Positions 3,030 to 44,844 of a DNA stretch of 64,000 bases are shown piece after piece. The notes under the pieces are model-generated. The model did not search any database. It was not told the origin of the DNA and saw only the letters and a list, made by a program, of their open reading frames with translations. Numbering within the stretch: position 1 is the stretch's first letter; each line of letters begins with the position of its first letter. The DNA is from Planctomycetota bacterium (GTDB taxonomy: Bacteria > Planctomycetota > GCA-002687715 > DRQF01): NCBI GenBank assembly GCA_036479435.1, contig JAZGFI010000117.1, positions 30,615-94,614 on the forward strand, given 5' to 3'. A program made the translations under genes and the position numbers.

Positions 3030-3127
3030 TGGCGGGAGTGCATGGGAATCGAACCCACCGAACGAGTTATTTGCTCGTTCCACCGGATTTGAAATCCGAA
3101 CCCGGCACCAGCACGAGAACCACTCCC
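3030..3127 (-). tRNA. selC: tRNA-Sec (UCA)
   Basis: 98-nt cloverleaf with anticodon loop TTTCAAA, long variable arm GAACGAG/CTCGTTC, TTCGATT T-loop and GCCA end; lies downstream of selA-selD. Confidence 0.95.
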
Positions 3128-3196: not shown

Positions 3197-4243
3197 TTAG
3201 CGAATTCGCACGATGGCCTCGTCCTCGGCTTTGACGACCGTGCCAATTCGGGCCGCTTCTTCGAGTCCCTCGGACTTCATGCCGGCAAGGACTTTTTCGA
3301 CTTGGTCTTCAGGCAAAGCGACGAGGAGGCCTCCAGATGTCTGAGGGTCAAACAAAAGTTCTTCGGACCAGCGATCGAGGTCGGTCTCAATGCGGGCAGC
3401 TGTGCCGACGTATTCCCGGCTTTCGCGAGCTCCGCGGGTGCAATATTGCTCCTGGAAGTAGTCTTCGACGCCCTTGATGCGAGGTACGCTCGCGGCGTCG
3501 ATGAGAAGGGCCGCGCCGCTTTTCTCCACCAATTCCCGGGCGTGGCCGATCAAGCCAAAGCCGGTGATGTCGGTCGCGGCCGAGACCGAAGCTTCCAACA
3601 AGTACTCAAGACCCTTGCCGTTTAAAGTGGTCATCCAGCGAATGGCCTCTTGGACGGTGGGGCCATTGTCCTTTGAAAGCTTGGTGGCGCTCGTGATGAT
3701 TCCGGTGCCGATTGGCTTGGTCAGGATGAGAGCATCCCCGATGCGAACTTTGCCGTTCGCCCAAATGTGGTCGGGGTGGACTTCGCCGGTGACGGCTAAG
3801 CCGTATTTGATCTCGGCATCCTCCACCGAGTGGCCGCCGCCGATGAGGGCTCCTGCTTCTTTCACCTTGCGTGCGCCGCCTTCGAGGATGGCGCCCAAGA
3901 TATCGAGCGAGAGTTGTTTTGACGGAAAACCCACGATATTGAGAGCCACGAGGGGCCGGCCGCCCATGGCGAAGACGTCGGATAGGGCGTTGGCCGCAGC
4001 GACTTCTCCGAACTGGTAGGGATCGTCGACCATCGGCGGGAAAAAGTCAGTGGTCATCACCAGGGCGCGGTCGTCACTGATTTTATAAACCGCCGCGTCA
4101 TCGGCACCCCCAAAACCCACTAAGAGATTCGGATCGTCGCTTCGTTCAATACGTCCCAAGACCTGGGACAAACCCTCCGGGGAGAGCTTGGCCGCTCAGC
4201 CGCCAGAACTTGCGTATTCGGTGAGCCGGATGTCTTGGCTCAT
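3197..4243 (-). CDS. selD: Selenide, water dikinase SelD; selenoprotein with in-frame UGA at codon 16
   Basis: ATG 4243 overlaps the selA stop (ATGA). Reads MSQDIRLTEYASSGG-U-AAKLSP with TGA at 4196-4198. DDAAV, TTDFF, ANALSDVFAMGG, DITGFGL and DPQTSGGLL motifs. Confidence 0.95.
4153..4169 (-). promoter_or_regulatory. SECIS-like hairpin of selD
   Basis: GTCCCA-GGTCT-TGGGAC begins 26 nt after the UGA. The apical CAGGTCT resembles the E. coli fdhF SECIS loop. Confidence 0.7.
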
Positions 4244-5658
4244 GACGCGTCCTCCGACAAGATTTCGATGAGCGCTTGCTCAACGATGGCTTCGTCGCCA
4301 TCGCGCATCGTCCTGAGGTCGAACAAGATTCGATCGTCCTGAATTCGGGGAAAAATTGAAATCGGGCGCTGGCGGAGAGCGCGGGCAATCTTGTCGGCGC
4401 TGTGGCCTACAGGTTGTACCGCCAAACAGCGCGTTGGAATTTGGAAAGTTGGCAAGCTGCCGGCGCCGAGTTGGCTTGTGGACTCAATCACTTCAGGTTT
4501 AGCCGCGTCGGGAAGGATCTTCTTAAGACGTTTCACAAAGACCTCGGCTTTTTTTTGTAGCCCGTCAACTCCCGCCGTCAACATGCCTAAAGTTGGGACA
4601 CGTTGGAGCACGGTTTCAGGTTCAAGATAGAGTTTGAGAGTGCTTTCCAAGGCAATGCAGGTGAGCTTGTCGATGCGAAGCGCCCGCGCCATGTGGTTGG
4701 AGCGGATGCGTTCGATCCAGGCTTTTTTGCCGACGATAATCCCGGCCTGGGGACCGCCCACTAATTTGTCACCCGAAAAGCAGATGACATCCGCTTGTGC
4801 TTTTACACTCGCTTGCACCGGAGGGTTGTCGCTGATGCCCCAGGGGCTGAGATCGATCAGACTTCCAGACCCGAGATCGTCGATGACCGGAATGTCGTGC
4901 TTTTTTCCCAAGGCCACCATGTCTTCGATGCCGACATGCTCGACAAACCCGATGATCTTGTAGTTGCTCGTATGGACGAGCATCAGCGCTCCAGTTTCTT
5001 CGTGGATTGCGCGCTCATAGTCGTAGACGTAGGACTTGTTGGTTGTGCCGACTTCACGAAGTTTACAGCCGCTCATTTCCATGACATCAGGGAGGCGGAA
5101 TGAACCCCCGATCTCGACCATCTGGGAACGCGACACGATGACGTCTTTGTCCTTCGCCAAAGTGTTGAGAATGATCATGGTGGCGGCCGCGTTGTTGTTG
5201 ACCACGATGGCCGCCTCCGCGCCGGTGAGCTCGCAGAGCAAGTCCTCACAAAAGGCGTCGCGCTTGCGCCGGTTGCCGTCTTCTTTGGCGACCTCGAGCA
5301 GATTGTAGCGCTCGGCGGTGGAGATCTCGGCGATGGCGGCGGCCGGCAAGACGGCGCGGCCGAGCCCCGAGTGCAAAATGATCCCGGTTGCGTTGACCAC
5401 GCGGCAAGTGCGAGATCGCGGCCAAGCCTCCAAGGCGATTTCTAATTCCCTCAAAATCGCGTCCATTCCTGGGGCGAGCTCTCGCGACCCGGACAGCAAG
5501 TCGCTACGGACAGATTGAAGGAGGGTGCGGGCGAGGTGGCCGATCAAAGTGGGAGAGACCTTTTTGGAGGTCTTTCGAGCGTGTGCTTCGATGATCGCGC
5601 CAACCGCCGGTAAGGACCGCAATCGTTGCTGGAGTTCGGACTTGGGACTCGCGGACAA
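4240..5658 (-). CDS. selA: L-seryl-tRNA(Sec) selenium transferase
   Basis: VVNATGIILHSGLGRA, VNNNAAA, EIGGSFRLPD, EVGTTN, DLGSG and FSGDKLVGGPQAG (PLP lysine) motifs. Confidence 0.95.
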   Translation of the reverse strand: MSASPKSELQQRLRSLPAVGAIIEAHARKTSKKVSPTLIGHLARTLLQSVRSDLLSGSRELAPGMDAILRELEIALEAWPRSRTCRVVNATGIILHSGLGRAVLPAAAIAEISTAERYNLLEVAKEDGNRRKRDAFCEDLLCELTGAEAAIVVNNNAAATMIILNTLAKDKDVIVSRSQMVEIGGSFRLPDVMEMSGCKLREVGTTNKSYVYDYERAIHEETGALMLVHTSNYKIIGFVEHVGIEDMVALGKKHDIPVIDDLGSGSLIDLSPWGISDNPPVQASVKAQADVICFSGDKLVGGPQAGIIVGKKAWIERIRSNHMARALRIDKLTCIALESTLKLYLEPETVLQRVPTLGMLTAGVDGLQKKAEVFVKRLKKILPDAAKPEVIESTSQLGAGSLPTFQIPTRCLAVQPVGHSADKIARALRQRPISIFPRIQDDRILFDLRTMRDGDEAIVEQALIEILSEDAS

Positions 5659-33612: not shown

Positions 33613-34398
33613 ATGCGAATCGCCACTTGGAACGTCAATTCGATCCGGACCCGTGAAAAACGTCTGCTGGCTTGGCTGAAGGAGTGGTCTCCGGACGTCC
33701 TTTGTCTTCAGGAAACGAAGGTTATCGACTCGGTCTTCCCCTTTGAGGCGATCACCGCGGCGGGCTACCACTTCGTGGTGCACGGGCAAAAGACTTACAA
33801 CGGCGTAGCCCTTTTGTCGAAGATCGAAGCAAAGGACGTCGAAAGTGGCTTTGGTGACGACGAGGATGACCCTCAGGCTCGATTCATCGCGGCTAAGTTC
33901 GGCGATCTGGTGGTGGCTTCGGCCTACATCCCCAATGGCTCCAAGCTCGATTCCGACAAATACCCGTACAAACGGCGTTGGTTGGCGCGGCTCGCTCAAT
34001 GGGCTGAGGGCAAGGTGAGCGCGGGGGCCTCGCTGGCGATAGGCGGTGATTACAACATCGCGCTCGACGAACGCGACTTTGCCGATCCCGATCGCTGGGC
34101 GGGGGGCGTCTTATACAATGCCGACGTCCATGCCGACTATGCACGCATCTTAGAAGCAGGCCTAAAAGATGCCTACCGGCTCAAGGTTGAAGAAGGCGGG
34201 CATTTCAGCTGGTGGGACTATCGCCAGCTTTCTTTTCCGCGCAATGATGGCCTTCGCATCGACCACATCTTGGTCACCGAGGATCTAGCTGCGCGCTGCC
34301 GAGATGCGACGATTGACCGTGATCAAAGAAAAAAAGGCGCCTGTCCTGACGGCAGTACCGCTTCCGACCACGCCCCTGTCGTGGTCGATTTTGACTGA
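33613..34398 (+). CDS. xth: Exodeoxyribonuclease III
   Basis: ATWNVNS, LCLQETK, YNGVA, GDYN, WWDYR, GLRIDHIL and SDHAPV motifs. Confidence 0.95.
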   Translation: MRIATWNVNSIRTREKRLLAWLKEWSPDVLCLQETKVIDSVFPFEAITAAGYHFVVHGQKTYNGVALLSKIEAKDVESGFGDDEDDPQARFIAAKFGDLVVASAYIPNGSKLDSDKYPYKRRWLARLAQWAEGKVSAGASLAIGGDYNIALDERDFADPDRWAGGVLYNADVHADYARILEAGLKDAYRLKVEEGGHFSWWDYRQLSFPRNDGLRIDHILVTEDLAARCRDATIDRDQRKKGACPDGSTASDHAPVVVDFD

Positions 34399-35135
34399 TG
34401 GCCTCAGCCAAGCGCGTACCCGCGGCCCTATCTCGCATCACCGACGATCTTTGCCGCGACCTGGCCCCCCTCGCTTTTGAGCCGCCTGTCGCCGCCGTCT
34501 TGAATCCGCTCGTGCACGCTCGCGTCCCGCACCGCAGGTTCTTGGCGAAGTATGCCCAAGGTACCAAGTCCACTTTGCTCTTGGGCATGAACCCTGGGCC
34601 CTGGGGCATGAACCAAACCGGCGTTCCCTTTGGCGAGGTCAGCCATGTCCGCGATTGGATGGGCATCGAGGGAAAAGTAGACTCTCCGCTGAACGCACCC
34701 AGCGCTCGTCCCATTCTCGGATTCAAGTGCACGCGCAGCGAAGTCAGTGGGGCCAGGCTTTGGGGCTGGGCGAAAGATCGATTCGGCACGCCGGAGCGTT
34801 TTTTCGCGGATCGCTTCGTGATCAACTACTGCCCGCTAATCTTTTTAGAAGAAGGCGGCCGCAATCGAACCCCGGACAAACTTCTGGCCGCAGAGCGAAA
34901 AGTCCTCGAAGAAATCTGCGATCACACCCTCCAGCGCTTCGTCGCCCATTTCCAACCCGAGCTCATCTTGGGCGTCGGTAAGTTCGCCGAAAAGTGCGCG
35001 AAGCGGACCTTGGGCAAGGACGGTCCAAGGATCGAATCCATCCCCCATCCCAGCCCCGCATCTCCCGCCGCCAACCGTGGCTGGGCCGCCCTCGTCGACC
35101 GACGCTTGGCTGAACTCGGAATCGACTGGTATTGA
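34398..35135 (+). CDS. SMUG1-family uracil-DNA glycosylase
   Basis: GMNPGPWGMNQTGVPFG, RSEVSG, NYCPL and HPSPASP motifs. Confidence 0.92.
   Translation: MASAKRVPAALSRITDDLCRDLAPLAFEPPVAAVLNPLVHARVPHRRFLAKYAQGTKSTLLLGMNPGPWGMNQTGVPFGEVSHVRDWMGIEGKVDSPLNAPSARPILGFKCTRSEVSGARLWGWAKDRFGTPERFFADRFVINYCPLIFLEEGGRNRTPDKLLAAERKVLEEICDHTLQRFVAHFQPELILGVGKFAEKCAKRTLGKDGPRIESIPHPSPASPAANRGWAALVDRRLAELGIDWY
34755..35135 (+). repeat. Left copy of direct repeat (intact SMUG1 3' end)
   Basis: Homologous to 40924-41174. Confidence 0.85.
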
Positions 35136-35302: not shown

Positions 35303-35651
35303 GTTGCCGAGACTCTTCGGCAATTCCCTCGAAAGGTAATTCATGATCCTGTTGCACAAACACTGACGCTGCTGAATGGCGTACAGTGGCACGGGGTCCG
35401 TGTCACGCCACCTCTAATCAGAGGCCACACAGGTCGACGTCCCCGATAGGGCATTCCCTTCGCCGGAGTCGTACCTGATTTCCACAACGCGTTTTCATGA
35501 CGGAGTCCAGGTGGACGCCGTGTTGTTGCGCGCATTTGGGGAACGTGGTTCACACCAGCTGCAAGAAATCTCAGTAACTGCCGAAGCCAAGCGCTTCGGC
35601 GTGTAGCTGGCGTCCGTGTTCTGTCCTTCGGGATCGAACAAGGAGACCTTT
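35303..35651 (+). ncRNA. Highly structured 5' leader; candidate riboswitch or attenuator of unrecognised class
   Basis: Numerous stems, mutually exclusive pairings, and a cUUCGg hairpin directly before the AGGAG RBS. Confidence 0.45.
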
Positions 35652-37082
35652 ATGTACTTACGTTTTACGGTGGCGTTCGTGATCTTCGTGGTCGCGGGTT
35701 CTGCCTTTGCACAACCACAGCAACAACAACAAAGCGTCGAAGATCGACTTCAACGGCTTGAGCAGGAAAACCGACGCATTCTGGATGCGTTTGAATCTTC
35801 GGAGGTGAGAAACGCTAGCCTGATAAAAGAAGTGCAAATGCTCCGATTGGAGTCTGAGGATTTACGCGAGGGCGCAGAATCCTGGCGCACGAGCGACCTG
35901 GAGCAGCGAGTTAACGCTCTCACATCGGCTCTGGACGTGACAGATTGGACGCCTGCGACAAAATCGGGGCTGCCGATTCGCTTTTACGGTTTCATTCGGA
36001 TGGACGCATACTGGAATTCCGCTCGCGCTACGGATCCGATCATCCCTTTTGGCGTTCTGCCGGAAGGGGTCAATGGCATTGGCCGCAATGACTCACAGTT
36101 CGCCTTGGACCCAAGGCTCACACGCTTCGGATTTGATGTGGATGCCGGTGAGATCGCGGGCGCCAAGGTTACTGCGAAGCTGGAAACAGATTTCGCCAAC
36201 TTTCCGTCCGGATCCACAGAATCCAGAGCGACACCTCGCATCCGGCTCGCCTACATCAACTTTGACTTCGGCGAATTGGATCTCCGAATTGGACAAGATT
36301 GGGATGTTGTTTCCCCCCTTTACCCCGCAGTCCATTCCGAGCTTCTCCTTTGGGGAGTCGGGAACCTTGGTGACCGAAGGGCCCAAGTTCAGCTGATCTG
36401 GAATACTGGCGACCCGAAGGGCTTCGCATTTACCGCGGAGCTTTCGGCCGGCTTGACCGGGGCCGTTGATGGCGCAGACAACGACGGTATCGGAGGCCGC
36501 AGCAACATCGATGGATTCGATAGCGGTCATCCGCACGGGCAGTTGCGCCTCGGCGGCAGTTTCAGTTCTTGGGTGACAGCAGAGCGTGCCGCCATTGGAT
36601 TCTGGGGATACGTCGCTTCTCTCGAGACCGACACTCGCTACGACGGCAACGATCGATACACGCCATTTACGGTCGGCGTCGACATCGTCTTGCCGCTATT
36701 TGATCGAGTGAGTTTGCGCGGTGAAGCGTGGTTCGGCCAAGCGCTTTCTGATCTTCGCGGGAACATTCTTCAGGACATCAATACCGCGACGGGAAAAGAA
36801 ATCAGCGGCTGGGGCGGCTTTGCTGAAATTCACTGGCAAGCGACCGACACTCTTCGACTCGCGGTCGGTGGCAGCATCGACGATCCAGACAACGGAGACT
36901 TAAACTTCGGCGTTTCTGGGGAAAACCGAGCGCTCAACTGGACCGTCTACCTGTCCTCCAAGTTGGATCTCGGGGGAGGGCTCACAACCGGCCTGGATGT
37001 CATCTACTGGGAGACCCAGTGGCTGGATTCCGGAATCGGCAACCTTCTGCGCGCCAACTACTGGATCCAATTGAATTTCTAG
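35652..37082 (+). CDS. Outer-membrane porin, DcaP-like, with N-terminal coiled coil
   Basis: Signal peptide, coiled coil, FYGFIRMD, TRFGF, ETDF, RIRLAY, IGQDW, C-terminal F. Confidence 0.8.
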   Translation: MYLRFTVAFVIFVVAGSAFAQPQQQQQSVEDRLQRLEQENRRILDAFESSEVRNASLIKEVQMLRLESEDLREGAESWRTSDLEQRVNALTSALDVTDWTPATKSGLPIRFYGFIRMDAYWNSARATDPIIPFGVLPEGVNGIGRNDSQFALDPRLTRFGFDVDAGEIAGAKVTAKLETDFANFPSGSTESRATPRIRLAYINFDFGELDLRIGQDWDVVSPLYPAVHSELLLWGVGNLGDRRAQVQLIWNTGDPKGFAFTAELSAGLTGAVDGADNDGIGGRSNIDGFDSGHPHGQLRLGGSFSSWVTAERAAIGFWGYVASLETDTRYDGNDRYTPFTVGVDIVLPLFDRVSLRGEAWFGQALSDLRGNILQDINTATGKEISGWGGFAEIHWQATDTLRLAVGGSIDDPDNGDLNFGVSGENRALNWTVYLSSKLDLGGGLTTGLDVIYWETQWLDSGIGNLLRANYWIQLNF

Positions 37083-37092
37083 GAGCGATCTG

Positions 37093-38208
37093 ATGACCAG
37101 AGTCAAATCATCACTAATTCTCGCGTCGCTGATCTTTTTAGGCCTCGGCTGCGCAAGTTCTTCCGGAGAACCCTCCAAATCATCGAGTGGGTTGAAGGGG
37201 ATCTACCTCGCAAACCACGATTTCACGATTGATGTTCCCGAGGGGACCGATCGCCTCCAGGCCTGGTTTGCCATGCCGTCGGACGTCGATCCCTACCAGT
37301 CGATTAGTCGTTGGAAGGTCGATGCACCGTATCCGACGAGGGTCGTTCGAGACACGCGCGGCAACAACTTCCTCTACATGGAAGCTCTTCGGCCATCGAG
37401 TGGCGAATTGACGGTGAAGACAAGTTTCAAGATCGTTCGTGAGGAAGTTGGGTTATCGATCGACCCGGCGTTGACAAGGCCTCATACCGCGGCTGAGCGT
37501 GCTCGGTTTGCCACCGATCTCCGTCCTTCATCTCAAATCGTCATCGACGACGACGTTCGTTCGATGGCGACCCAAGCCGTCGGAATGGAAACCAATCCGA
37601 TCCTTGTTTCGCGCCGGCTCTACGATGCGGTTCTTGATCATGTCGAGTATCACGTGAAGGACCCGAATCCCGATTCTGCGAAGACGATGAGTTCGTCAGG
37701 AACAGGAAGCAGCCGCTACGCATTCGAAAAGTGTACGGGTAACTGTACTGACTTCCATTCGCTTTACGCTGCGCTGTCGCGATCGCAAGGGATTCCGACG
37801 CGCGCAGTCTATGGCTCGTTTTTCAAAGGGCCGCTTGACGGCAGGGACGAGGACCAAAGCTACCACTGCTGGATCGAATTCCATGCTCCGAATATCGGAT
37901 GGATCCCACTGGATGTCGCCGTCGCGGACATATTTGCACCCGACTTCCATGCGAACGAGCACAGTCGAAAGCGGGCGATCCTGACCGTTGCGAACGGTTA
38001 CGGTGGCCCCGACCCAAGGATGGTCGACTACTACTTCGGGAACATCGACGAACGCCGTGTGGTTTGGCATCGAGGGCGGGATCTCGTCATGAAAGACCCG
38101 CCCCAGTCCGGAGCTCCTTTGTTGTGGAATCCCAAAGCCTACGTCGAACTTGACGGCAAGGCCTCGAAGGCGGGGCGCAAGCTGACCTACCATACGGAGG
38201 AGCGCTGA
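37093..38208 (+). CDS. Transglutaminase-like lipoprotein (Cys-His-Asp triad)
   Basis: Lipobox LGLGC; GNCTDFH, YHCWIEF and GWIPLDV motifs. Confidence 0.85.
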   Translation: MTRVKSSLILASLIFLGLGCASSSGEPSKSSSGLKGIYLANHDFTIDVPEGTDRLQAWFAMPSDVDPYQSISRWKVDAPYPTRVVRDTRGNNFLYMEALRPSSGELTVKTSFKIVREEVGLSIDPALTRPHTAAERARFATDLRPSSQIVIDDDVRSMATQAVGMETNPILVSRRLYDAVLDHVEYHVKDPNPDSAKTMSSSGTGSSRYAFEKCTGNCTDFHSLYAALSRSQGIPTRAVYGSFFKGPLDGRDEDQSYHCWIEFHAPNIGWIPLDVAVADIFAPDFHANEHSRKRAILTVANGYGGPDPRMVDYYFGNIDERRVVWHRGRDLVMKDPPQSGAPLLWNPKAYVELDGKASKAGRKLTYHTEER

Positions 38209-38308
38209 ATCCGTGTCCAGCGCCGCTCGAGCGGCGCTGGACTTTCCGACTTTGGAAACTCGCAAGAGTTCAGGGCGAATTCTTGAAGACCAAGGAGACC
38301 TCAAGATC

Positions 38309-38926
38309 ATGAAGAAAGTTGACTGGGACGGCGATGATGTTGTACGGCGAACTGAAATGGTCCTCTTGGCCGTTCGGAAAGCCGGCGGCCAGCAATGCCA
38401 AGACGGTGATTGCACCCGACTCCTCTGCGGACACGAGGCCATCTTTAGCCTTATCGCCGGCTACTCCGAACGACCTATTTGCCGCCAATGCTTGGCTCGG
38501 CAGCTCGATCGAGACCTCGAATATCTCGAAAGCGAACTCGCCATGTTTGCGGCATCGAAACCATGTCTCAGTCAGGGCTGGCGTCTTGCGAACATCGACG
38601 AAGGTGATTCTGTCGATGCCATCCCACACTGTTTTCAGACCACGGCATTGAAACAAGGCCCCAAATCGGACGCCCCCTTGACTGTCGGCAGCTTAGTGAC
38701 GGGGCAGCCGAAACCCGACGCTATTTGGGACGCCGGGGATCAAGGTTGCGGCGATCTTGCTCTGGAACTTCGTAAACGGATTACGCAACTTTCGGCCGGA
38801 GCGATCCTCGAACTGCGTGCAACCGACCCGGGTGCCCCGGAGGACGTCCCGGCCTGGTGCCGGCTTACCGGCCATCCACTCGTTTTCTCGCAACACCCCA
38901 TCTACTTCATCAAAAGGAAGCTTTGA
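38309..38926 (+). CDS. Cys/His-rich N-domain fused to a TusA-like sulfur-carrier domain
   Basis: CQDGDC..LCGH..CRQC..C, followed by WDAGDQGCGDL...ATDPGAPEDVPAWCRLTGH. Confidence 0.75.
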   Translation: MKKVDWDGDDVVRRTEMVLLAVRKAGGQQCQDGDCTRLLCGHEAIFSLIAGYSERPICRQCLARQLDRDLEYLESELAMFAASKPCLSQGWRLANIDEGDSVDAIPHCFQTTALKQGPKSDAPLTVGSLVTGQPKPDAIWDAGDQGCGDLALELRKRITQLSAGAILELRATDPGAPEDVPAWCRLTGHPLVFSQHPIYFIKRKL

Positions 38927-38927
38927 T

Positions 38928-39290
38928 ATGACCGGAAAATTCTGCATTAGCTTGACTTGTGCAAAAGAGAACAGTGACGCGGCCACGGTTGCGTTCGTCG
39001 TGGCCAACGCTGCGCTGGGTTCAGCGCAAGACACCCTCGTTTTTCTCAGCACAGAAGGGGTTCGCTTGTCTCAGCAAGGCTACGCTGATGACATCGAGGA
39101 ATCCGGGTTCGCACCGCTGCGAACGCTCATGGCGGATTTCGCCGATTCGGGCGGTGTCATCTACGTGTGTTCGCCGTGCTTCAAAAAACGTGACTTGGAC
39201 GAAAGCAAGCTAGTGGCCGGAGCGAAGATCGTGGGCGGAGCGAAACTAATCGAGTTTTTGGCCGACGGCACTCCGTCGATCAGCTATTAA
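38928..39290 (+). CDS. DsrE/DsrF-like protein
   Basis: VAFVVANAA, VFLSTEGV, YVCSPCFKKR and GAKIVG motifs. Confidence 0.85.
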   Translation: MTGKFCISLTCAKENSDAATVAFVVANAALGSAQDTLVFLSTEGVRLSQQGYADDIEESGFAPLRTLMADFADSGGVIYVCSPCFKKRDLDESKLVAGAKIVGGAKLIEFLADGTPSISY

Positions 39291-39304
39291 GTCCGGGGGC
39301 GACG

Positions 39305-40834
39305 ATGAAAGAACGCAACCACGATCACCTGCTTCCAGATTTGAGTTTTGATGGCGGCGATCTCGACTGTGGCAACGGTCTGTTGCTCCTGATTCGACGT
39401 CACATCGATCCCTTGGATCAAGGAAAACTTCTCGAGATCCGATCGACCGAACCTTCAGTCGAAACAGATCTACCTTCCTGGTGCCGTCTGACGGGCAACG
39501 AACTCGTAGAGATTCTCCGCGAGGCTGAGGGAAACGTACGACGATATCTAATCCGTAAAGGTGGGCCGTCTTCGAAGCCTCCAAAGACGATCGCTTCTGC
39601 TATTCCAGCACCCCTTGAGCATCTCCTCCGTGCGGTCGTCATCCCCGAGCGGCTACCGAGACCATCACCGGCACCCGATATCGCCCCTCTCTCGACCATG
39701 TGCATCGGGAGCTGGCCGCGACCAAACTGGATGCTTCGCGCGATTCACGAGCGTTTGGAAGGTCGCACGGATCCGGTCACATTTGCGGAGACCGGCAATG
39801 ATGCCGTGCGACTCTGCGTCGCCTCACAACTTGAGGCTGGGGTCGATGTCGTCACGGACGGCGAGCAGCGTCGTGACTCCTACGCAAGTTTCGTCGGCGG
39901 CATCCTCGACAACGCACAGTTGATTCCGCTATCTGACCTTTCCGCAATGGTCGATGATCCCGAGAAGTTTCGAGAAGAATTGGCTGCTCTCGACGTCCCG
40001 GCAGACGACGTCAGGCATCCGGTTCCGCTCGGTCCTCTCGGGCGGTCTGAACCGCTCGCAGTTCACGAGTTCGAGTTCGCCGCATCCTTGACTGACAAAC
40101 CCATCAAGATCGCATTGCCCGGTCCTTACCTGCTCACGAGAACGATGTGGCTCGATTGCCTTCGCGACAACTCCTACAACAGTCGTGAGGACGTGGCGAA
40201 GGACATCGTCAGAATCCTCCGCGAGGAGTTGCACTACCTTCTCGCGGCCGGTGTGGCCCTCGTTCAGTTCGACGAACCGGTGTTGACGGAAGTGGTCTTC
40301 ACTCGGCCGGACAAGAGCAGGAGCTTCATGTGCGGAGCCCTGAGCGAAAAAGGCGCGCCCGAAGACGAGTTACGTTTTGCTTCCGATCTCATCAACCAGG
40401 TTGTCGCCGGACTTCCCAAAGAACGGACAGCAGTACACATTTGTCGCGGCAACTGGACCAAGGACGAAGGGGCTCTTTTAGCCGGCAACTATCAACCGCT
40501 TTTGCCTTACTTGCGGTCGGCAACCGTCGGAACTCTTTTTCTCGAGTACTCTACGCCGCGCGCCGGCGAGATCGAGCTTTTGAGCCAGATTCCCGAGACC
40601 GTCCGCATCGGACTGGGCGTCGTCAACCCGCGGTCGGAGCGTGTGGAAACCGTGGAGGAGATCGTCGGCCGCGCTCGGGCGGCCATGTCTCTGATTGGTC
40701 GGGATCGACTTCTCCTCAATTCGGATTGTGGTTTCGCGACTTTTGCAGACAATCCGGTTGCTTCGGCGAGCATCGCCAAGAGCAAGCTTGTCTCGATGGC
40801 CGCAGCGACCCATCTTCTTCGCGGAGAACAATGA
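39305..40834 (+). CDS. TusA-like domain fused to a cobalamin-independent methionine synthase II (MetE C-domain)-like protein
   Basis: N-terminal FDGGDLDCGNGLL...DLPSWCRLTGN. Then IGSWPRP, VTDGEQRR, QFDEP and Zn ligands HICRGN / LEY / DCGF. Confidence 0.85.
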   Translation: MKERNHDHLLPDLSFDGGDLDCGNGLLLLIRRHIDPLDQGKLLEIRSTEPSVETDLPSWCRLTGNELVEILREAEGNVRRYLIRKGGPSSKPPKTIASAIPAPLEHLLRAVVIPERLPRPSPAPDIAPLSTMCIGSWPRPNWMLRAIHERLEGRTDPVTFAETGNDAVRLCVASQLEAGVDVVTDGEQRRDSYASFVGGILDNAQLIPLSDLSAMVDDPEKFREELAALDVPADDVRHPVPLGPLGRSEPLAVHEFEFAASLTDKPIKIALPGPYLLTRTMWLDCLRDNSYNSREDVAKDIVRILREELHYLLAAGVALVQFDEPVLTEVVFTRPDKSRSFMCGALSEKGAPEDELRFASDLINQVVAGLPKERTAVHICRGNWTKDEGALLAGNYQPLLPYLRSATVGTLFLEYSTPRAGEIELLSQIPETVRIGLGVVNPRSERVETVEEIVGRARAAMSLIGRDRLLLNSDCGFATFADNPVASASIAKSKLVSMAAATHLLRGEQ

Positions 40835-40923: not shown

Positions 40924-41174
40924 AGACTTTGGGGATGAGCCAAAGAACGATTCGCCACGCCGGAGCGTTTTTTCGCGGATCGCTTCGTGATCAACTACTG
41001 CCCGCTGATCTTCCTCGAACAGGGCGGTCGTAGGTCGTAATCGAATTCCCGACAAACTACTGGCCGCGGATCGAATCCATCCCGCACCCCAGCCCGGCAT
41101 CTCCAGCCGCCAACCGTGGCTGGGCCGCCCTCGTCGACCGACGCTTGGCTGAGCTTGGAATCGACTGGTACTAA
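40924..41174 (+). pseudogene. Decayed duplicate of the SMUG1 3' end (right direct repeat)
   Basis: Matches 34755-35135 but has TGG>TGA, a 7-nt duplication (GGTCGTA x2), a ~140-nt internal deletion and many synonymous changes. Confidence 0.88.
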
Positions 41175-41393: not shown

Positions 41394-41675
41394 ATGTGGG
41401 TGGAGCGCGAAAAGATCGGGGTCTTCGACGTGAAGACCCATTTCTCAGAGATCGTCGACCGGGTTCTCAAGGACGGCCGCACGATCACCGTTACGCGCCG
41501 CGGCGAGCCTGTGGTCGAGATCTCCCCCTGTCAGAAAAAAGTCGCCAGCGGTCGGATGACCAAGGGTGAAGCCCTGAAAGCATTCGACGAGCTTCGCGCC
41601 CGGCTTCCCAAGATGAAGCGCGATGAAATCGTCGAACTCGTCCATGAAGGCCGCAAGCCGTGTCCGAATTCGTAG
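41394..41675 (+). CDS. Phd/YefM family antitoxin
   Basis: IGVFDVKTHFSEIVDRV...ITVTRRGEPV. Confidence 0.88.
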   Translation: MWVEREKIGVFDVKTHFSEIVDRVLKDGRTITVTRRGEPVVEISPCQKKVASGRMTKGEALKAFDELRARLPKMKRDEIVELVHEGRKPCPNS

Positions 41676-42086
41676 TCGACGGCAGCGTGACCATGGCTTG
41701 GCTCTTCGATGAGCAGGAGCACCGGGAGTGGTTCACAGAAGGGCTCGGGCGCGCGACCATGGTCGCGCCCTGTTGCGGTGACCAACACCATGCTGGTCAA
41801 AGAGCGCCGTAGAGACATTTCGGTCGCTGACGGGAGCCGGTTCCTTCAAATCGTCGATGCCCTGCAAATTGATATCGTCGGGGAACCTGGTCAGCGCAGC
41901 CTTGAGGCGCTCGCAAACTTTGCCCGACCTCACCAACTGACGTCCTACGACGCACTCTACCTGGAGCTGGCGATTAGCCTCGGCCTGCCCCTGTGTACCC
42001 TGGACCGAAACCTCCAGAGTGCGGCGCGCAGATGCGGCGTAGATCTCATCATCGACTTTGAGCGTGACGGGAAGACGGATTCATGA
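41660..42086 (+). pseudogene. vapC: VapC/PIN toxin, frameshifted near 41770
   Basis: GTG 41660 gives MSEFVVDGSVTMAWLF...MVAP. The frame then changes to VTNTMLVKERR...LTSYDALYLELA..LCTLDRNL. Confidence 0.8.
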
Positions 42087-42179
42087 TCTAGGATCTTCGG
42101 GTTCTAAGGTAAGTCTGCGGCCTTTTGGCGAGAGCGAATCCGCTGTCCGCGGCGCGACGACGGACGGCAACCAGGCGGT

Positions 42180-42294
42180 GGTGTATCTTCTCTTTTGTAC
42201 TTTCCTCTTCGGCTTCTCTTCTCAGCTGCGGGTCTCGGCAAGCCGCGCCCGAGAAGAAGGGCTGAAGAGGAAAGTACAGAAGAGAAGTTGCACC
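42180..42294 (+). repeat. Long imperfect inverted repeat (44-bp stem)
   Basis: 42180-42223 pairs with 42251-42294: 37 Watson-Crick pairs, 5 G-U pairs, 2 mismatches. Confidence 0.85.
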
Positions 42295-42324
42295 AGCCCG
42301 CGTCGCACGAAACTGGAAAGCGTT

Positions 42325-44844
42325 CTATTCCTTGATTTGGATGCTCGTGGCTTGGCTGATGGAAGTGGCGCTCATGGCCTGGGCCCAGAACTCGCCGCGC
42401 AGCCATTTCGGTGGGTCGAGGAAGGCTTGGGCGGCGCCGTTGGTATCGGTCTGAAGGATGATCGTGAAGGGCTTTCCGTCGGGAGTGGCGAGCACTTTTT
42501 GGGGATCGATGCGGGCCAAACCTCGGTGGGCTTCAATGGGCTTCGGGGTCGCGAGTGCTTCCTTGGCGAAGAATACTTCGTAGCGGGATTCGATTTCCGC
42601 GCCGCGAAGGGCGATTTGAAGCCGTCCTTCGGGCCCAAGCGGCTCGATGGAGAGGGCGGCTTGCTCGACGGGATTCTGATGTCGGGTCAAGGCGGGCAGG
42701 ATGCGGATGCGTTCGATGACGGCGGAGTCGCCGAGTGCTGGCCTTATCGTGAGCGTCCTGACGCCGCCTTTGCCGAGAGGGATGCGCCAGGTGTTTTGGC
42801 CTTCGGGCTTGGTGAAGAGCTGCCGGACGCGCTGGTTGGAGCCGTCGCGAGGGAACCAGGAAATGGACCAGGGAACTCCGGCAGGGGTGGCGCCAAAAGT
42901 CGCGACGATTTCGAGGTCGATCGGACCCTTGAGTTGTTGTTGGCCGGGCTGCCATTTTAATCGTGTGGTTGCAGATGTGCGCTGGAGCATTAAGCCGCGC
43001 CGAGTCTCGCGAGGGTCGGTGTTGACGGCGATCAGAAAATCGGGTCCGCTGCGCCCCAAGATTCGGGCCTCGACGCTCGGTTCCAACAAGATGATCGAGG
43101 GGGCGCTGTTCCAGTAGGTCCATCCCCCGGTTGCCAGAACGAAGAACAGCAAAAAGGCCACCGCCCAACCGTAGCGATCCAAACCGGGAATGCGAGGGCA
43201 GTAGCTCGCGATCGCCGCCCCCAGCAGTGGAACCAGCAGGGGATACGCTGGGATCAAGTAGTTTTCGACATCAACAAACCAGGCGGCCTCAAGCCAGGAA
43301 ACAAGGGTGATCCTGGAGCCGATCGCGAACAGGAACACCAAAGCTGCGACTAACAATGGCGTTAATTTACGGCGGCGAACGATGCCTATTGCTAGCAACA
43401 AGAAAGCGGCGACGCCAATCCATACCAATGTTCGCGAATAGAGAACGCGAATGCGTTCCGCGAGATCGGACTTTTTGAAAAGATCGCGTATGCCGGACCC
43501 GAACTCTCGACCCAAGATGCGTTCGAATTGTTCGCGCTCGGCCTCGTCAACTTCAAGTCGAGGAAGTCGCGGCGCGGGTCTCGTGACGCTATCTTCAACT
43601 TGGAAGAGGTCAGTGGCATTGTCCGAAAAGCTTAGGAAAAAGGGGCTGAAGAGCTCGCTTCGCACCTCTGGATACTGAGAATGCCGAGGCCCGCCAGCGG
43701 AGAGTTTGCCCTTGGCTATCGCCTCTTCGATTTCAGCTGCCATGCGGTCATAGAATTCTGCGGCGGCGCTTGGCGTCGACGCCTGCTTTGATTCCATCAC
43801 GGCCACTCGAACGGAAAAGATCAAAAAAACTGCCTGGCGCTCGTCGTTTGCGGCCAACATGTGCGGGAGGCGAAACGCTGGGCTCTCGAGCCAATTCCTC
43901 AAGGACGCGAATGCCGGTGAGACGGCATAGAGCTTTTGTCGGGAAGTCGCCGAAAGCGGCTCGTAGCGCTCCCAATCGGCACAAGCTACCCGTTGGATTG
44001 CGCCCATCGCTCGATTGTAGGCCGGCTCTTTGAGTTCCTGTCGAACCCGCATCCCGTAGTAATGTTCGTTGAGGCGTGACCAGCCCTCATTGGTTCCGAC
44101 CACCATTGCCGTTGGGATGCACAAAAGAACCAAGGTGCTCATCCAAGCGAGTTTGGCTCCGCGTTGTCGTTCCAACAAATAGTGGCCACCAGCCAATGCA
44201 AAGAGTGCGGGCAAAATCCAGACGCCTTCGCCGCGGGTGATAAACAGCCACGAAGTGGCGAGCCCCAGCGCGGCCGACTGCAGGAAGCGACTAAAAAAAG
44301 TGGCACGAGCCAAAAGCCCAATGCCCAGGGCCAAGACGATTAGGGTCAAAGATGCGTAGAATCCATCGCGAATGACTCGTCGCGCGACCTCGCCGAAAAG
44401 GACCGGATGAAAAAGCGTCAGCAAAAAGATCAAAGACGCGAGCAGTCGACCCATTCCTATTCGGCGAAAAGCAACGAAAAGCATCAAGGAAGCGATACCG
44501 TGGAAAAGGCTCTCGGAGAATCGACGCGGCAAACCCAAACTGGTATTGCCCGCCAAGAAGATGGAGAAGCCCGGCCCTTTGGTGAGCAAGCGGTGGTCGT
44601 AGGGGCCAAGCCACTCACCATCGAGCAGCGAGGCCGCTTGGCGGACGTACAAGGCGTCGTCGACGTCCAAGTGGAAAAAGCTGGGCGCAAAGTCGCCAGC
44701 CAACCAAATGCGGCAGCCGATGGCGAGCAACAGCACCAGCCCCAAAAGGATCGAGTTGCGATCCGGTTTGGGCCGGTTGCTTTCGTCCACGCTCTCGGCG
44801 TCGGCTTCTATGTGCATCGAGATCAATCCCTCCGCGGGGATCAT
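42325..44844 (-). CDS. Multi-TM GT-C/PMT-like membrane glycosyltransferase with a soluble C-terminal extension
   Basis: DDALY motif after TM1, KGPGFS, TRGEG, more than 10 TMs. Confidence 0.6.
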   Translation of the reverse strand: MIPAEGLISMHIEADAESVDESNRPKPDRNSILLGLVLLLAIGCRIWLAGDFAPSFFHLDVDDALYVRQAASLLDGEWLGPYDHRLLTKGPGFSIFLAGNTSLGLPRRFSESLFHGIASLMLFVAFRRIGMGRLLASLIFLLTLFHPVLFGEVARRVIRDGFYASLTLIVLALGIGLLARATFFSRFLQSAALGLATSWLFITRGEGVWILPALFALAGGHYLLERQRGAKLAWMSTLVLLCIPTAMVVGTNEGWSRLNEHYYGMRVRQELKEPAYNRAMGAIQRVACADWERYEPLSATSRQKLYAVSPAFASLRNWLESPAFRLPHMLAANDERQAVFLIFSVRVAVMESKQASTPSAAAEFYDRMAAEIEEAIAKGKLSAGGPRHSQYPEVRSELFSPFFLSFSDNATDLFQVEDSVTRPAPRLPRLEVDEAEREQFERILGREFGSGIRDLFKKSDLAERIRVLYSRTLVWIGVAAFLLLAIGIVRRRKLTPLLVAALVFLFAIGSRITLVSWLEAAWFVDVENYLIPAYPLLVPLLGAAIASYCPRIPGLDRYGWAVAFLLFFVLATGGWTYWNSAPSIILLEPSVEARILGRSGPDFLIAVNTDPRETRRGLMLQRTSATTRLKWQPGQQQLKGPIDLEIVATFGATPAGVPWSISWFPRDGSNQRVRQLFTKPEGQNTWRIPLGKGGVRTLTIRPALGDSAVIERIRILPALTRHQNPVEQAALSIEPLGPEGRLQIALRGAEIESRYEVFFAKEALATPKPIEAHRGLARIDPQKVLATPDGKPFTIILQTDTNGAAQAFLDPPKWLRGEFWAQAMSATSISQATSIQIKE

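Follow-up and report, generated by a model that had tools for sequence, protein, structure and literature searches.

What does a zinc enzyme resembling methionine synthase do when it carries a fused TusA-like domain and is encoded behind further cysteine-bearing carrier proteins? The question is raised by five genes in a 64,000-nucleotide stretch of DNA (hereafter the window; contig JAZGFI010000117.1, positions 30,615 to 94,614) from a Planctomycetota bacterium, which encode, in this order, a putative outer-membrane β-barrel, a transglutaminase-fold lipoprotein, a cysteine-rich protein ending in a TusA-like domain, a DsrE-like protein and a TusA-like domain fused to a single-barrel zinc enzyme of the MetE family. 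These five genes are one co-inherited module, which is widespread but unstudied and whose product or substrate is probably homocysteine or methionine, made or handled by a new route. The explanation that we rank first, with a probability of about 0.36, is that the enzyme adds a fifth kind to the 'core' methionine synthases, one that needs neither cobalamin nor folate and is served by a relay of cysteine (Cys) or selenocysteine (Sec) residues.

Gene layout and conservation of the module

The genes lie on the plus strand between positions 35652 and 40834, with intergenic gaps of 10, 100, 1 and 14 nt (Table 1) and with upstream GTG codons at 35616 and 38213 as alternative starts. The layout, gaps, domains and motifs listed in an initial annotation of the window were all reproduced by calls of open reading frames (ORFs), Pfam searches and alignments, including GDxxCG and WC(R) in the TusA-like domains and H378-x-C380, E414, D474-C475-G476 and F-M-C343-G-A-L in the enzyme. 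Promoter and terminator scans stayed at chance level.

The clustering itself is far beyond chance, because the same arrangement recurs in other genomes. At E ≤ 0.001, 7003 of 8000 scored candidates match the fused enzyme, and among the 120 matches listed, identities are 62-67% across phyla and the automatic names are those of ordinary MetE. A scan of species-representative genomes gave at least 576 enzyme relatives, from which the best 80 loci were kept and searched with the five window proteins; the locus fractions that follow describe this subset of the 80 closest relatives alone. Where at least 1200 nt lie upstream of the enzyme, a DsrE homologue directly precedes it in 64 of 66 loci, and a stand-alone TusA stands before the DsrE in 56 of the 66, with the Cys-rich extension in 11. 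The titles of the loci name Terriglobia, Dehalococcoidia, Planctomycetota, Burkholderiales, Binatia, Rokubacteria, Methylomirabilota, Melainabacteria and Verrucomicrobia, among others. The trio that forms the core of the module, found in many phyla, joins the TusA-enzyme fusion to a DsrE-like protein with a CxxC motif and a TusA-like protein that stands alone.

We also searched a sample of 301 genomes of the window's phylum, in which 45, the window's own genome included, carry the enzyme at E ≤ 1e-60, 14 as full-length fusions (56-65% identical) and 31 as barrel-only matches (42-48%). Eight loci show what this second form looks like: a separate gene for a TusA::OsmC-like protein, confirmed by Pfam in two loci and read by eye in the other six, immediately precedes the barrel gene. 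As the TusA domain is here encoded separately, its link to the enzyme holds whether or not the two are fused. A Cys-TusA gene and a DsrE gene lie upstream in seven of these eight loci, and in the remaining one (L088) the barrel gene stands between the two, with DsrE upstream of it and Cys-TusA downstream; homologues of the porin candidate and the lipoprotein adjoin five of the eight. Overall, gene 1 homologues adjoin the module in loci L010, L013, L026, L035, L040, L068 and L090-L094.

Table 1. Positions of the module, its domains, its flanking repeats and the selenium genes in the window.
Feature	Position	Strand	Basis
Gene 1, putative outer-membrane β-barrel, DcaP-like porin candidate	35652..37082	+	Atlas neighbours
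Gene 2, transglutaminase-fold lipoprotein	37093..38208	+	PF01841, 1.8e-17
Gene 3, Cys-rich N-terminal domain, linker and C-terminal TusA-like domain	38309..38926	+	PF01206 TusA, 5e-9
Gene 4, DsrE-like protein, 120 aa	38928..39290	+	PF02635, 4.5e-13
Gene 5, TusA-like domain fused to single-barrel MetE-family zinc enzyme	39305..40834	+	Pfam
Fused TusA-like domain of gene 5 (Cys22, Cys60), then linker	39305..39570	+	Pfam, alignment, model
MetE-family zinc enzyme domain of gene 5	39680..40834	+	PF01717 Meth_synt_2, 8e-29
Cys343 codon (TGC) of gene 5, on family-specific flexible loop	40331..40333	+	Column is TGA in four relatives
Left direct repeat, 3' end of UDG-superfamily gene 34398-35135 (PF03167)	34755..35131	+	Alignment
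Right direct repeat, degenerate second copy with 137-nt internal gap	40924..41170	+	Alignment
selC (tRNA-Sec)	3034..3127	-	
selD, with in-frame TGA	3302..4228	-	
selA	4270..5622	-	

Whether the two outer genes belong to the same system as the cytoplasmic trio is less obvious. That they are unrelated neighbours of it would agree with their scarcity outside the window's phylum, the lipoprotein occurring in six and the porin in five of the 53 loci with at least 4500 nt upstream, with the 16 of 45 module genomes of the phylum sample in which no lipoprotein was found at E ≤ 1e-40, and with the lack of an inner-membrane transporter within the cluster. We nevertheless consider this very improbable, since of the 32 phylum-sample genomes in which the lipoprotein reaches that threshold, 29 have the enzyme as well, with the two genes on one contig within 5 kb in 24 and on different contigs of fragmented assemblies in the other five; the association, moreover, spans enzyme forms that are merely 42-48% identical, and in the window only 10 nt and 100 nt separate the lipoprotein gene from its neighbours. 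Given this co-occurrence, the five-gene set is best described as a conserved variant of a wider module of three or four genes, to which the porin and the lipoprotein were added mainly in the window's phylum. The initial annotation had taken the five genes for one system, and the set does occur together, the trio across phyla and all five genes widely within the phylum.

The carrier proteins and the outer pair

Both TusA-like domains exceed the Pfam cut-off for TusA (PF01206; 36.3 and 29.8 bits against 28.6), in gene 3 at residues 151-192 and in gene 5 with an E-value of 5e-7, and both miss the TusA equivalog NF001423 (29.1 and 33.8 bits, with 78 required). They depart from canonical TusA in the same manner, GDxxCG taking the place of CPxP, so that the CPxP positions read C-G-D-L and C-G-N-G, and a second Cys standing in WC(R). 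Of the two cysteines, the first falls in alignment on the canonical TusA-family Cys of PDB entry 1PAV, and in the stand-alone TusA both the GDxxCG and the WC cysteines are conserved in 65 of 65 sequences. The N-terminal domain of gene 3 (approximately residues 1-110) adds seven Cys and one His, which 12-14 of 14 homologues retain; Pfam gave no match for this domain, and its best neighbour in the Atlas (0.89) is unnamed. The gene 4 protein is a DsrE match (49.8 bits, cut-off 22.7) with the motif C81-S-P-C84, of which both cysteines are conserved in 78 of 78 sequences and C81 aligns with the Cys of PDB entry 3MC3.

For gene 1, an N-terminal signal peptide, a coiled coil and a β-barrel are predicted. 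The protein has no Pfam match at E ≤ 0.1, the DcaP model PF19577 being likewise unmatched; its nearest Atlas clusters are of the 'porin family' (score 0.98, TM 0.76-0.82), and 40-50% of the members of these clusters carry PF19577. We treat the designation as a DcaP-like porin as a lead, not as family membership. Gene 2 has a lipobox (...LGLGC) and a transglutaminase core (64 bits, cut-off 23), whose Cys218-His258-Asp274 triad is invariant in 13 of 13 sequences. Its predicted structure has a predicted local distance difference test score (pLDDT) of 87 and matches best the uncharacterised putative cysteine protease 3ISR (TMt 0.71), with TgpA also among the fold matches.

The zinc enzyme

The barrel of gene 5 scores 101 bits against PF01717 (cut-off 21), and the folate-binding N-terminal barrel of MetE (PF08267) gave no Pfam match in it. 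The predicted zinc ligands H378, C380, E414 and C475 are conserved, the first two and C475 in 89 of 89 enzyme ORFs, and so is a triad of S136, E187 and D323; ligands and triad alike are kept in the 89 locus ORFs and in 86 database proteins. In an alignment with PDB entry 3RPD, the nearest solved structure by sequence (101 bits), the zinc ligands coincide and the triad falls on the GS, DGEQ and DEP motifs. This entry is MesD bound to selenomethionine, whose ligand contacts are described as Ser22, Glu73 and Asp188 (Price 2021, PMC7857596). As the triad is intact, the substrate at the zinc would most likely be homocysteine or methionine itself and not a carrier thiol. The AlphaFold model of gene 5 (pLDDT 81.9) leads to the same relatives, with 3RPD as the best match (TMt 0.82, 25-26% identity), followed by canonical MetEs.

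Database names and the PF01717 match would make this protein an ordinary 5-methyltetrahydropteroyltriglutamate--homocysteine methyltransferase. That is barely credible, given the missing N-terminal barrel and a score of 77.9 bits against the canonical MetE model TIGR01371, whose cut-off is 929.95; in the account of Price (2021, PMC7857596), furthermore, the characterised core enzymes use methylcobalamin and not methylfolate in vitro, and MesD has no need of 5-methyltetrahydrofolate. The remaining NCBIfam equivalogs (PRK04326, PRK09121, PRK06233, PRK00957 and PRK01207) also score under their cut-offs, the best at 154.7 bits of 406 and the others at 121.9 of 392, 92 of 576, 80.1 of 258 and 45.2 of 399. 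By these hidden Markov model cut-offs and PDB scores, on which its placement rests, the enzyme lies outside the characterised methionine-synthase families, as the initial annotation had suspected, with MesD just 25-26% identical.

Between the TusA domain and the barrel, residues 89-106 form a linker that is poorly conserved, modelled with low confidence and predicted to be disordered, and that looks like the tether of a swinging carrier domain.

Cys343 and its probable selenocysteine variants

The extra cysteine of the FMCGAL motif, singled out in the initial annotation, proved to be important. Cys343 is conserved in 87 of 89 enzyme ORFs and lies in a segment (residues 329-363) that does not align to MesD, close to a loop (334-341) with a pLDDT below 50. 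In four relatives (L088, L090, L096 and L098) the column is occupied by an in-frame TGA, in the context ...T-F-M-U-(G/A)-(V/T)-L..., and the reading frame continues beyond it, conserved through the zinc ligands to the C-terminus; among the 11 second-form loci examined, these four have TGA and seven have Cys. Six enzyme matches had been flagged for an internal TGA, of which four have it at the Cys343 column and two (G169 and G231) carry Cys there. A reading of the flagged TGA codons as gene boundaries is wrong for four of the six.

Of the four genomes with the TGA form, three have a strong tRNA-Sec (73-80 bits) and two have a selD that exceeds its cut-off, none being detected in the remaining two assemblies. 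Hairpins 3' of the TGA, as candidates for a selenocysteine insertion sequence (SECIS), do not exceed the corresponding stretch of the Cys homologues in stability, and in this GC-rich DNA the thermodynamic comparison says little; with SECIS support absent, the case for Sec rests on the position of the codon and the conserved frame after it. Since an apparent Sec replaces Cys343 in four relatives, the substitution marks this residue as functionally important, and we read it as catalytic. DsrE-like (UxxC), OsmC-like and rhodanese-like Sec families are listed in a review of prokaryotic selenoproteins from 2026, in whose main text the terms PF01717, MetE and homocysteine are absent; the Sec variant of the enzyme would thus add a selenoprotein family to those treated there. 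Gene callers end the Sec-form enzymes prematurely at the TGA.

Interchange of Sec and Cys is, according to the same review, typical of redox-active cysteines, which raises the possibility that the protein is a thiol/selenol redox enzyme whose substrate is of the methionine or homocysteine type. Cys/Sec343 would attack free methionine sulfoxide or homocysteine disulfides and so reduce them, with resolution by the CxxC cysteines of TusA and DsrE, or else, in another form of the idea, the protein would be a methionine synthase whose relay merely repairs oxidised zinc-site cysteines. The DsrE CxxC, present in 78 of 78 sequences, is in line with this, as are reports of MetE as a target of oxidative S-thiolation (PMC4360819, PMC6178380) and the structure of oxidised Thermotoga maritima MetE (1XR2). 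Neighbours of the thiol-peroxidase type also recur, namely an OsmC domain or gene, AhpC/Redoxin (L045, L042) and glutathione S-transferase (L012), but these redox neighbours are scattered over single loci, as are a second DsrE, LysR regulators and α/β hydrolases, and the OsmC-like domain lacks its usual cysteine in two of eight sequences judged by eye. We know, moreover, of no established role for zinc in sulfoxide reduction, and hold a redox function to be rather improbable.

Homocysteine, methionine and the proposed cysteine relay

We place a methionine synthase first since every single-barrel enzyme that has been characterised with this active site is one. In the mechanism that we envisage, homocysteine (or methionine) would be held on the zinc of the enzyme, the tethered TusA domain would receive sulfur or reducing equivalents from the free carriers, and it would swing onto the barrel and serve Cys/Sec343 beside the zinc-bound thiolate. 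The Cys/Sec relay would then be an obligatory partner of the enzyme, in the place taken by corrinoid proteins for MesA-C and by MesX for MesD, and the synthase would be used as an accessory route alongside MetH. The DcaP-like porin and the lipoprotein would presumably admit and process an outside compound that feeds the module. Import and processing of a substrate by this pair, and movement of an alkyl group by the zinc enzyme to or from a carrier-bound thiol, persulfide or selenide, were proposals of the initial annotation.

Several observations weigh against this. Neither a donor for the methyl group nor a protein that would handle it is evident, and the Cys relay has no obvious part in methyl supply; the TusA and DsrE families are known solely as sulfur carriers, and methyl donation from a thioether or selenoether such as one on Cys/Sec343 would be is not known. 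Nor is the module the sole candidate for methionine synthesis in its own genome, which has a full MetH (a 1223-aa frame), a MetX-like gene (380 bits, under the equivalog cut-off) and four PF01053 enzymes of Cys/Met metabolism dependent on pyridoxal 5'-phosphate (PLP), for which reason we regard the module as accessory; searches of this genome for further PF01717 genes or TusA domains found none. Further PF01717 paralogues accompany the module in all 13 complete chromosomes of metagenome-assembled genomes (MAGs) that carry it, and PF02574, the MetH-type homocysteine domain, is present in 11 of the 13. In the phylum sample, where marker frequencies are hand counts over related and hence not independent genomes, PF02574 occurs in 41 of 45 module genomes and 211 of 256 others, and the canonical MetE N-domain PF08267 in one of 45 and 18 of 256; no complementary distribution of the module with MetH or MetE is seen, and the module neither replaces nor avoids MetH. 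Lastly, no riboswitch, including those for S-adenosylmethionine and B12, was detected at Rfam gathering thresholds in the window or in nine loci from nine lineages.

A tie to methionine biosynthesis is nonetheless given by seven Binatia loci, in which the module is divergent from metY-metX-metW, with a MetX above its cut-off (531 bits). This adjacency and the co-occurrence with MetH-type genes, which would be odd for a replacement, are also explained by the main rival proposal, in which the enzyme is a persulfide-dependent, PLP-independent homocysteine synthase. Here, the TusA/DsrE relay would load sulfane sulfur on Cys/Sec343, the zinc-activated persulfide would attack O-acetyl-, O-succinyl- or O-phospho-homoserine in the Ser/Glu/Asp pocket, the carrier thiols would resolve the resulting Cys343-S-S-homocysteine, and MetH would methylate the product, with metX/metW supplying O-acetylhomoserine in the Binatia. 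Each part would keep its family role, TusA and DsrE as sulfur carriers and the MetE-family barrel as an alkylating enzyme for zinc-bound thiolates, and the Sec forms of DsrE-like UxxC and rhodanese-like proteins in the 2026 review are compatible with such a use of sulfur. The proposal is nonetheless unlikely, as it has no enzymological precedent, there being no known MetE-family enzyme with an electrophile in the amino-acid pocket; PLP sulfhydrylases are already present in the window's own genome and in the Binatia loci; and a two-Cys TusA without CPxP together with a DsrE CxxC fits dithiol/disulfide exchange at least equally well. A fuller version, also unlikely, would make Cys/Sec343 a covalent carrier whose relay-delivered persulfide or selenosulfide is alkylated on the zinc by activated homoserine, yielding homocysteine free of PLP and of free sulfide, while the porin and the hydrolase harvest sulfur or selenium from outside.

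As a separate observation on methionine genes, the near-complete genomes of phylum-sample family f35 (e.g., G032, G062, G087, G112 and G169) show neither PF02574 nor the canonical MetE N-domain; the module is present in G112 and G169 and absent from the rest.

Selenium

The initial annotation also pointed to selenium use by the host. The selC, selD and selA genes are indeed inside the window, 31 kb from the module (Table 1), but their connection to it is weak, selD being found, by hand count, in 39 of 45 module genomes and in 178 of 256 non-module genomes (217 of all 301). The frequency of selD, together with the apparent Sec variants of the enzyme and the sel genes of the window, might be taken to indicate a selenium-specific pathway. 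Its carriers would be loaded with selenide or perselenide, and its enzyme would either form selenohomocysteine or selenomethionine or detoxify selenium by methylation. We find this distinctly improbable: selD is common in the phylum anyway, six module genomes lack it at E ≤ 1e-30, most enzymes carry Cys instead of Sec, and the sel genes do not adjoin the module, which is at most weakly tied to selenium use.

GrdB and PrdB are selenoprotein families, and a GrdB/PrdB-like gene (PF07355, 3e-10; 93 bits against the PrdB model, under its cut-off) lies upstream of the module in an Obscuribacterales MAG (L054:5882-6658), with one 95-aa ORF between them.

Relation to known systems

The closest parallel is MesD with its partner MesX (PMC7857596; 3RPD), likewise a single MetE-type barrel without a folate domain, with the same zinc ligands and triad and with a dependence, real or apparent, on dedicated partner proteins. 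The module differs in its TusA/DsrE-type cysteine partners, the fused TusA domain and the Cys/Sec343 loop, and the Tyr226 insertion of MesD (after H-I-C) aligns to gaps in gene 5 (phmmer, 3RPD). MesX (DUF1852, PF08908) is not among the module's neighbours in the 80 loci and was not found in the window's own genome (92% complete), in a search made without a positive control. Canonical MetE (1T7L, 1U1J, 4ZTX) shares the catalytic barrel, zinc site and homocysteine pocket, but has the N-terminal barrel and only 18-22% identity to gene 5 in structure alignments. MesA, MesB and MesC are half-size MetEs with an external partner that supplies the methyl group, and are tied to corrinoid proteins, methanogenesis or the Wood-Ljungdahl pathway (Price 2021, PMC7857596); genes of these three kinds are not among the module's recurrent neighbours, no genome-wide search for them having been made. 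Another core MetE barrel joined to a carrier-type domain, and likewise proposed as a B12-independent methionine synthase, is the algal 'MetE-fusion' (Rao 2024, PMC10861871), which is described there with an N-terminal PP-binding/polyketide synthase part and a C-terminal CzcO-type oxidoreductase; TusA, DsrE and the Cys343 loop are missing from it.

On the side of the carriers, the TusA-DsrE(FH) relays (tRNA thiolation, Dsr, DsrE3/TusA) have the same two families side by side, with the first TusA Cys and DsrE C81 at canonical active-site positions, and the module is set apart from them by CG for CPxP, the second invariant TusA Cys, the CxxC of DsrE and the MetE-family acceptor. That sulfur bound to a protein can enter methionine biosynthesis has a precedent in the HcyS/HcyD/MetY system of Wolinella, whose carrier is of another family, a ubiquitin-like thiocarboxylate. 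Epoxyalkane:coenzyme M transferase shows that MetE-family zinc enzymes can include one that alkylates a thiol different from homocysteine, but its substrate has no amino-acid end, whereas the homocysteine triad of gene 5 is intact. The statement of the initial annotation that no characterised pathway has this composition agrees with our literature searches, which covered papers without their supplements and found none on TusA or DsrE with MetE-like enzymes.

The enzyme family is large and routinely auto-named ordinary MetE, in a step of metabolism that is central and tied to B12 and folate, and for which partner-dependent 'core' synthases are still being discovered (Price 2021, PMC7857596). 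Should the enzyme be a methionine synthase, predictions of B12 dependence would be wrong for many soil and freshwater bacteria; should it form homocysteine from carrier-bound sulfur, it would represent a new assimilation route.

Flanking repeats and neighbouring genes

The module is flanked, as after an insertion, by direct repeats that are 88-91% identical. The left one comprises approximately 380 nt of the 3' end of a gene of the uracil-DNA glycosylase (UDG) superfamily, and the alignment with the right one reaches the stop codon of that gene. Taken together with the patchy distribution (45 of 301 genomes) and the high identity across phyla, this suggests that the module moves as a unit.

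Two further gene neighbourhoods were recorded at other module loci. In a Rokubacteria MAG (L022:5187-6971), a 594-aa gene ends 6 nt before the module, and its C-terminal half passes the equivalog for PhnC, the phosphonate ABC ATPase (288 bits against 266). In three Binatia loci (L055:8768-10987, L056:11261-13010 and L082:10218-11885), a downstream set resembles a zinc-starvation cluster, with a 739-aa His/Asp/Glu-repeat protein, a Fur-family regulator, a CobW-type GTPase and a His-rich coiled-coil barrel protein.

In the window itself, an ORF for a Phd/YefM-type antitoxin (41394-41675, plus strand; PF02604, 1.5e-9) lies just past the right repeat and is followed by a weak PIN-domain ORF (41709-42086, plus strand; 21.9 bits, slightly under the cut-off). 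Beyond these, an inverted repeat at 42179-42295, with 53-nt arms that are 81% complementary and 11 nt apart, is located at the 3' end of an 839-aa membrane-protein ORF (42325-44844, minus strand) with no Pfam match.

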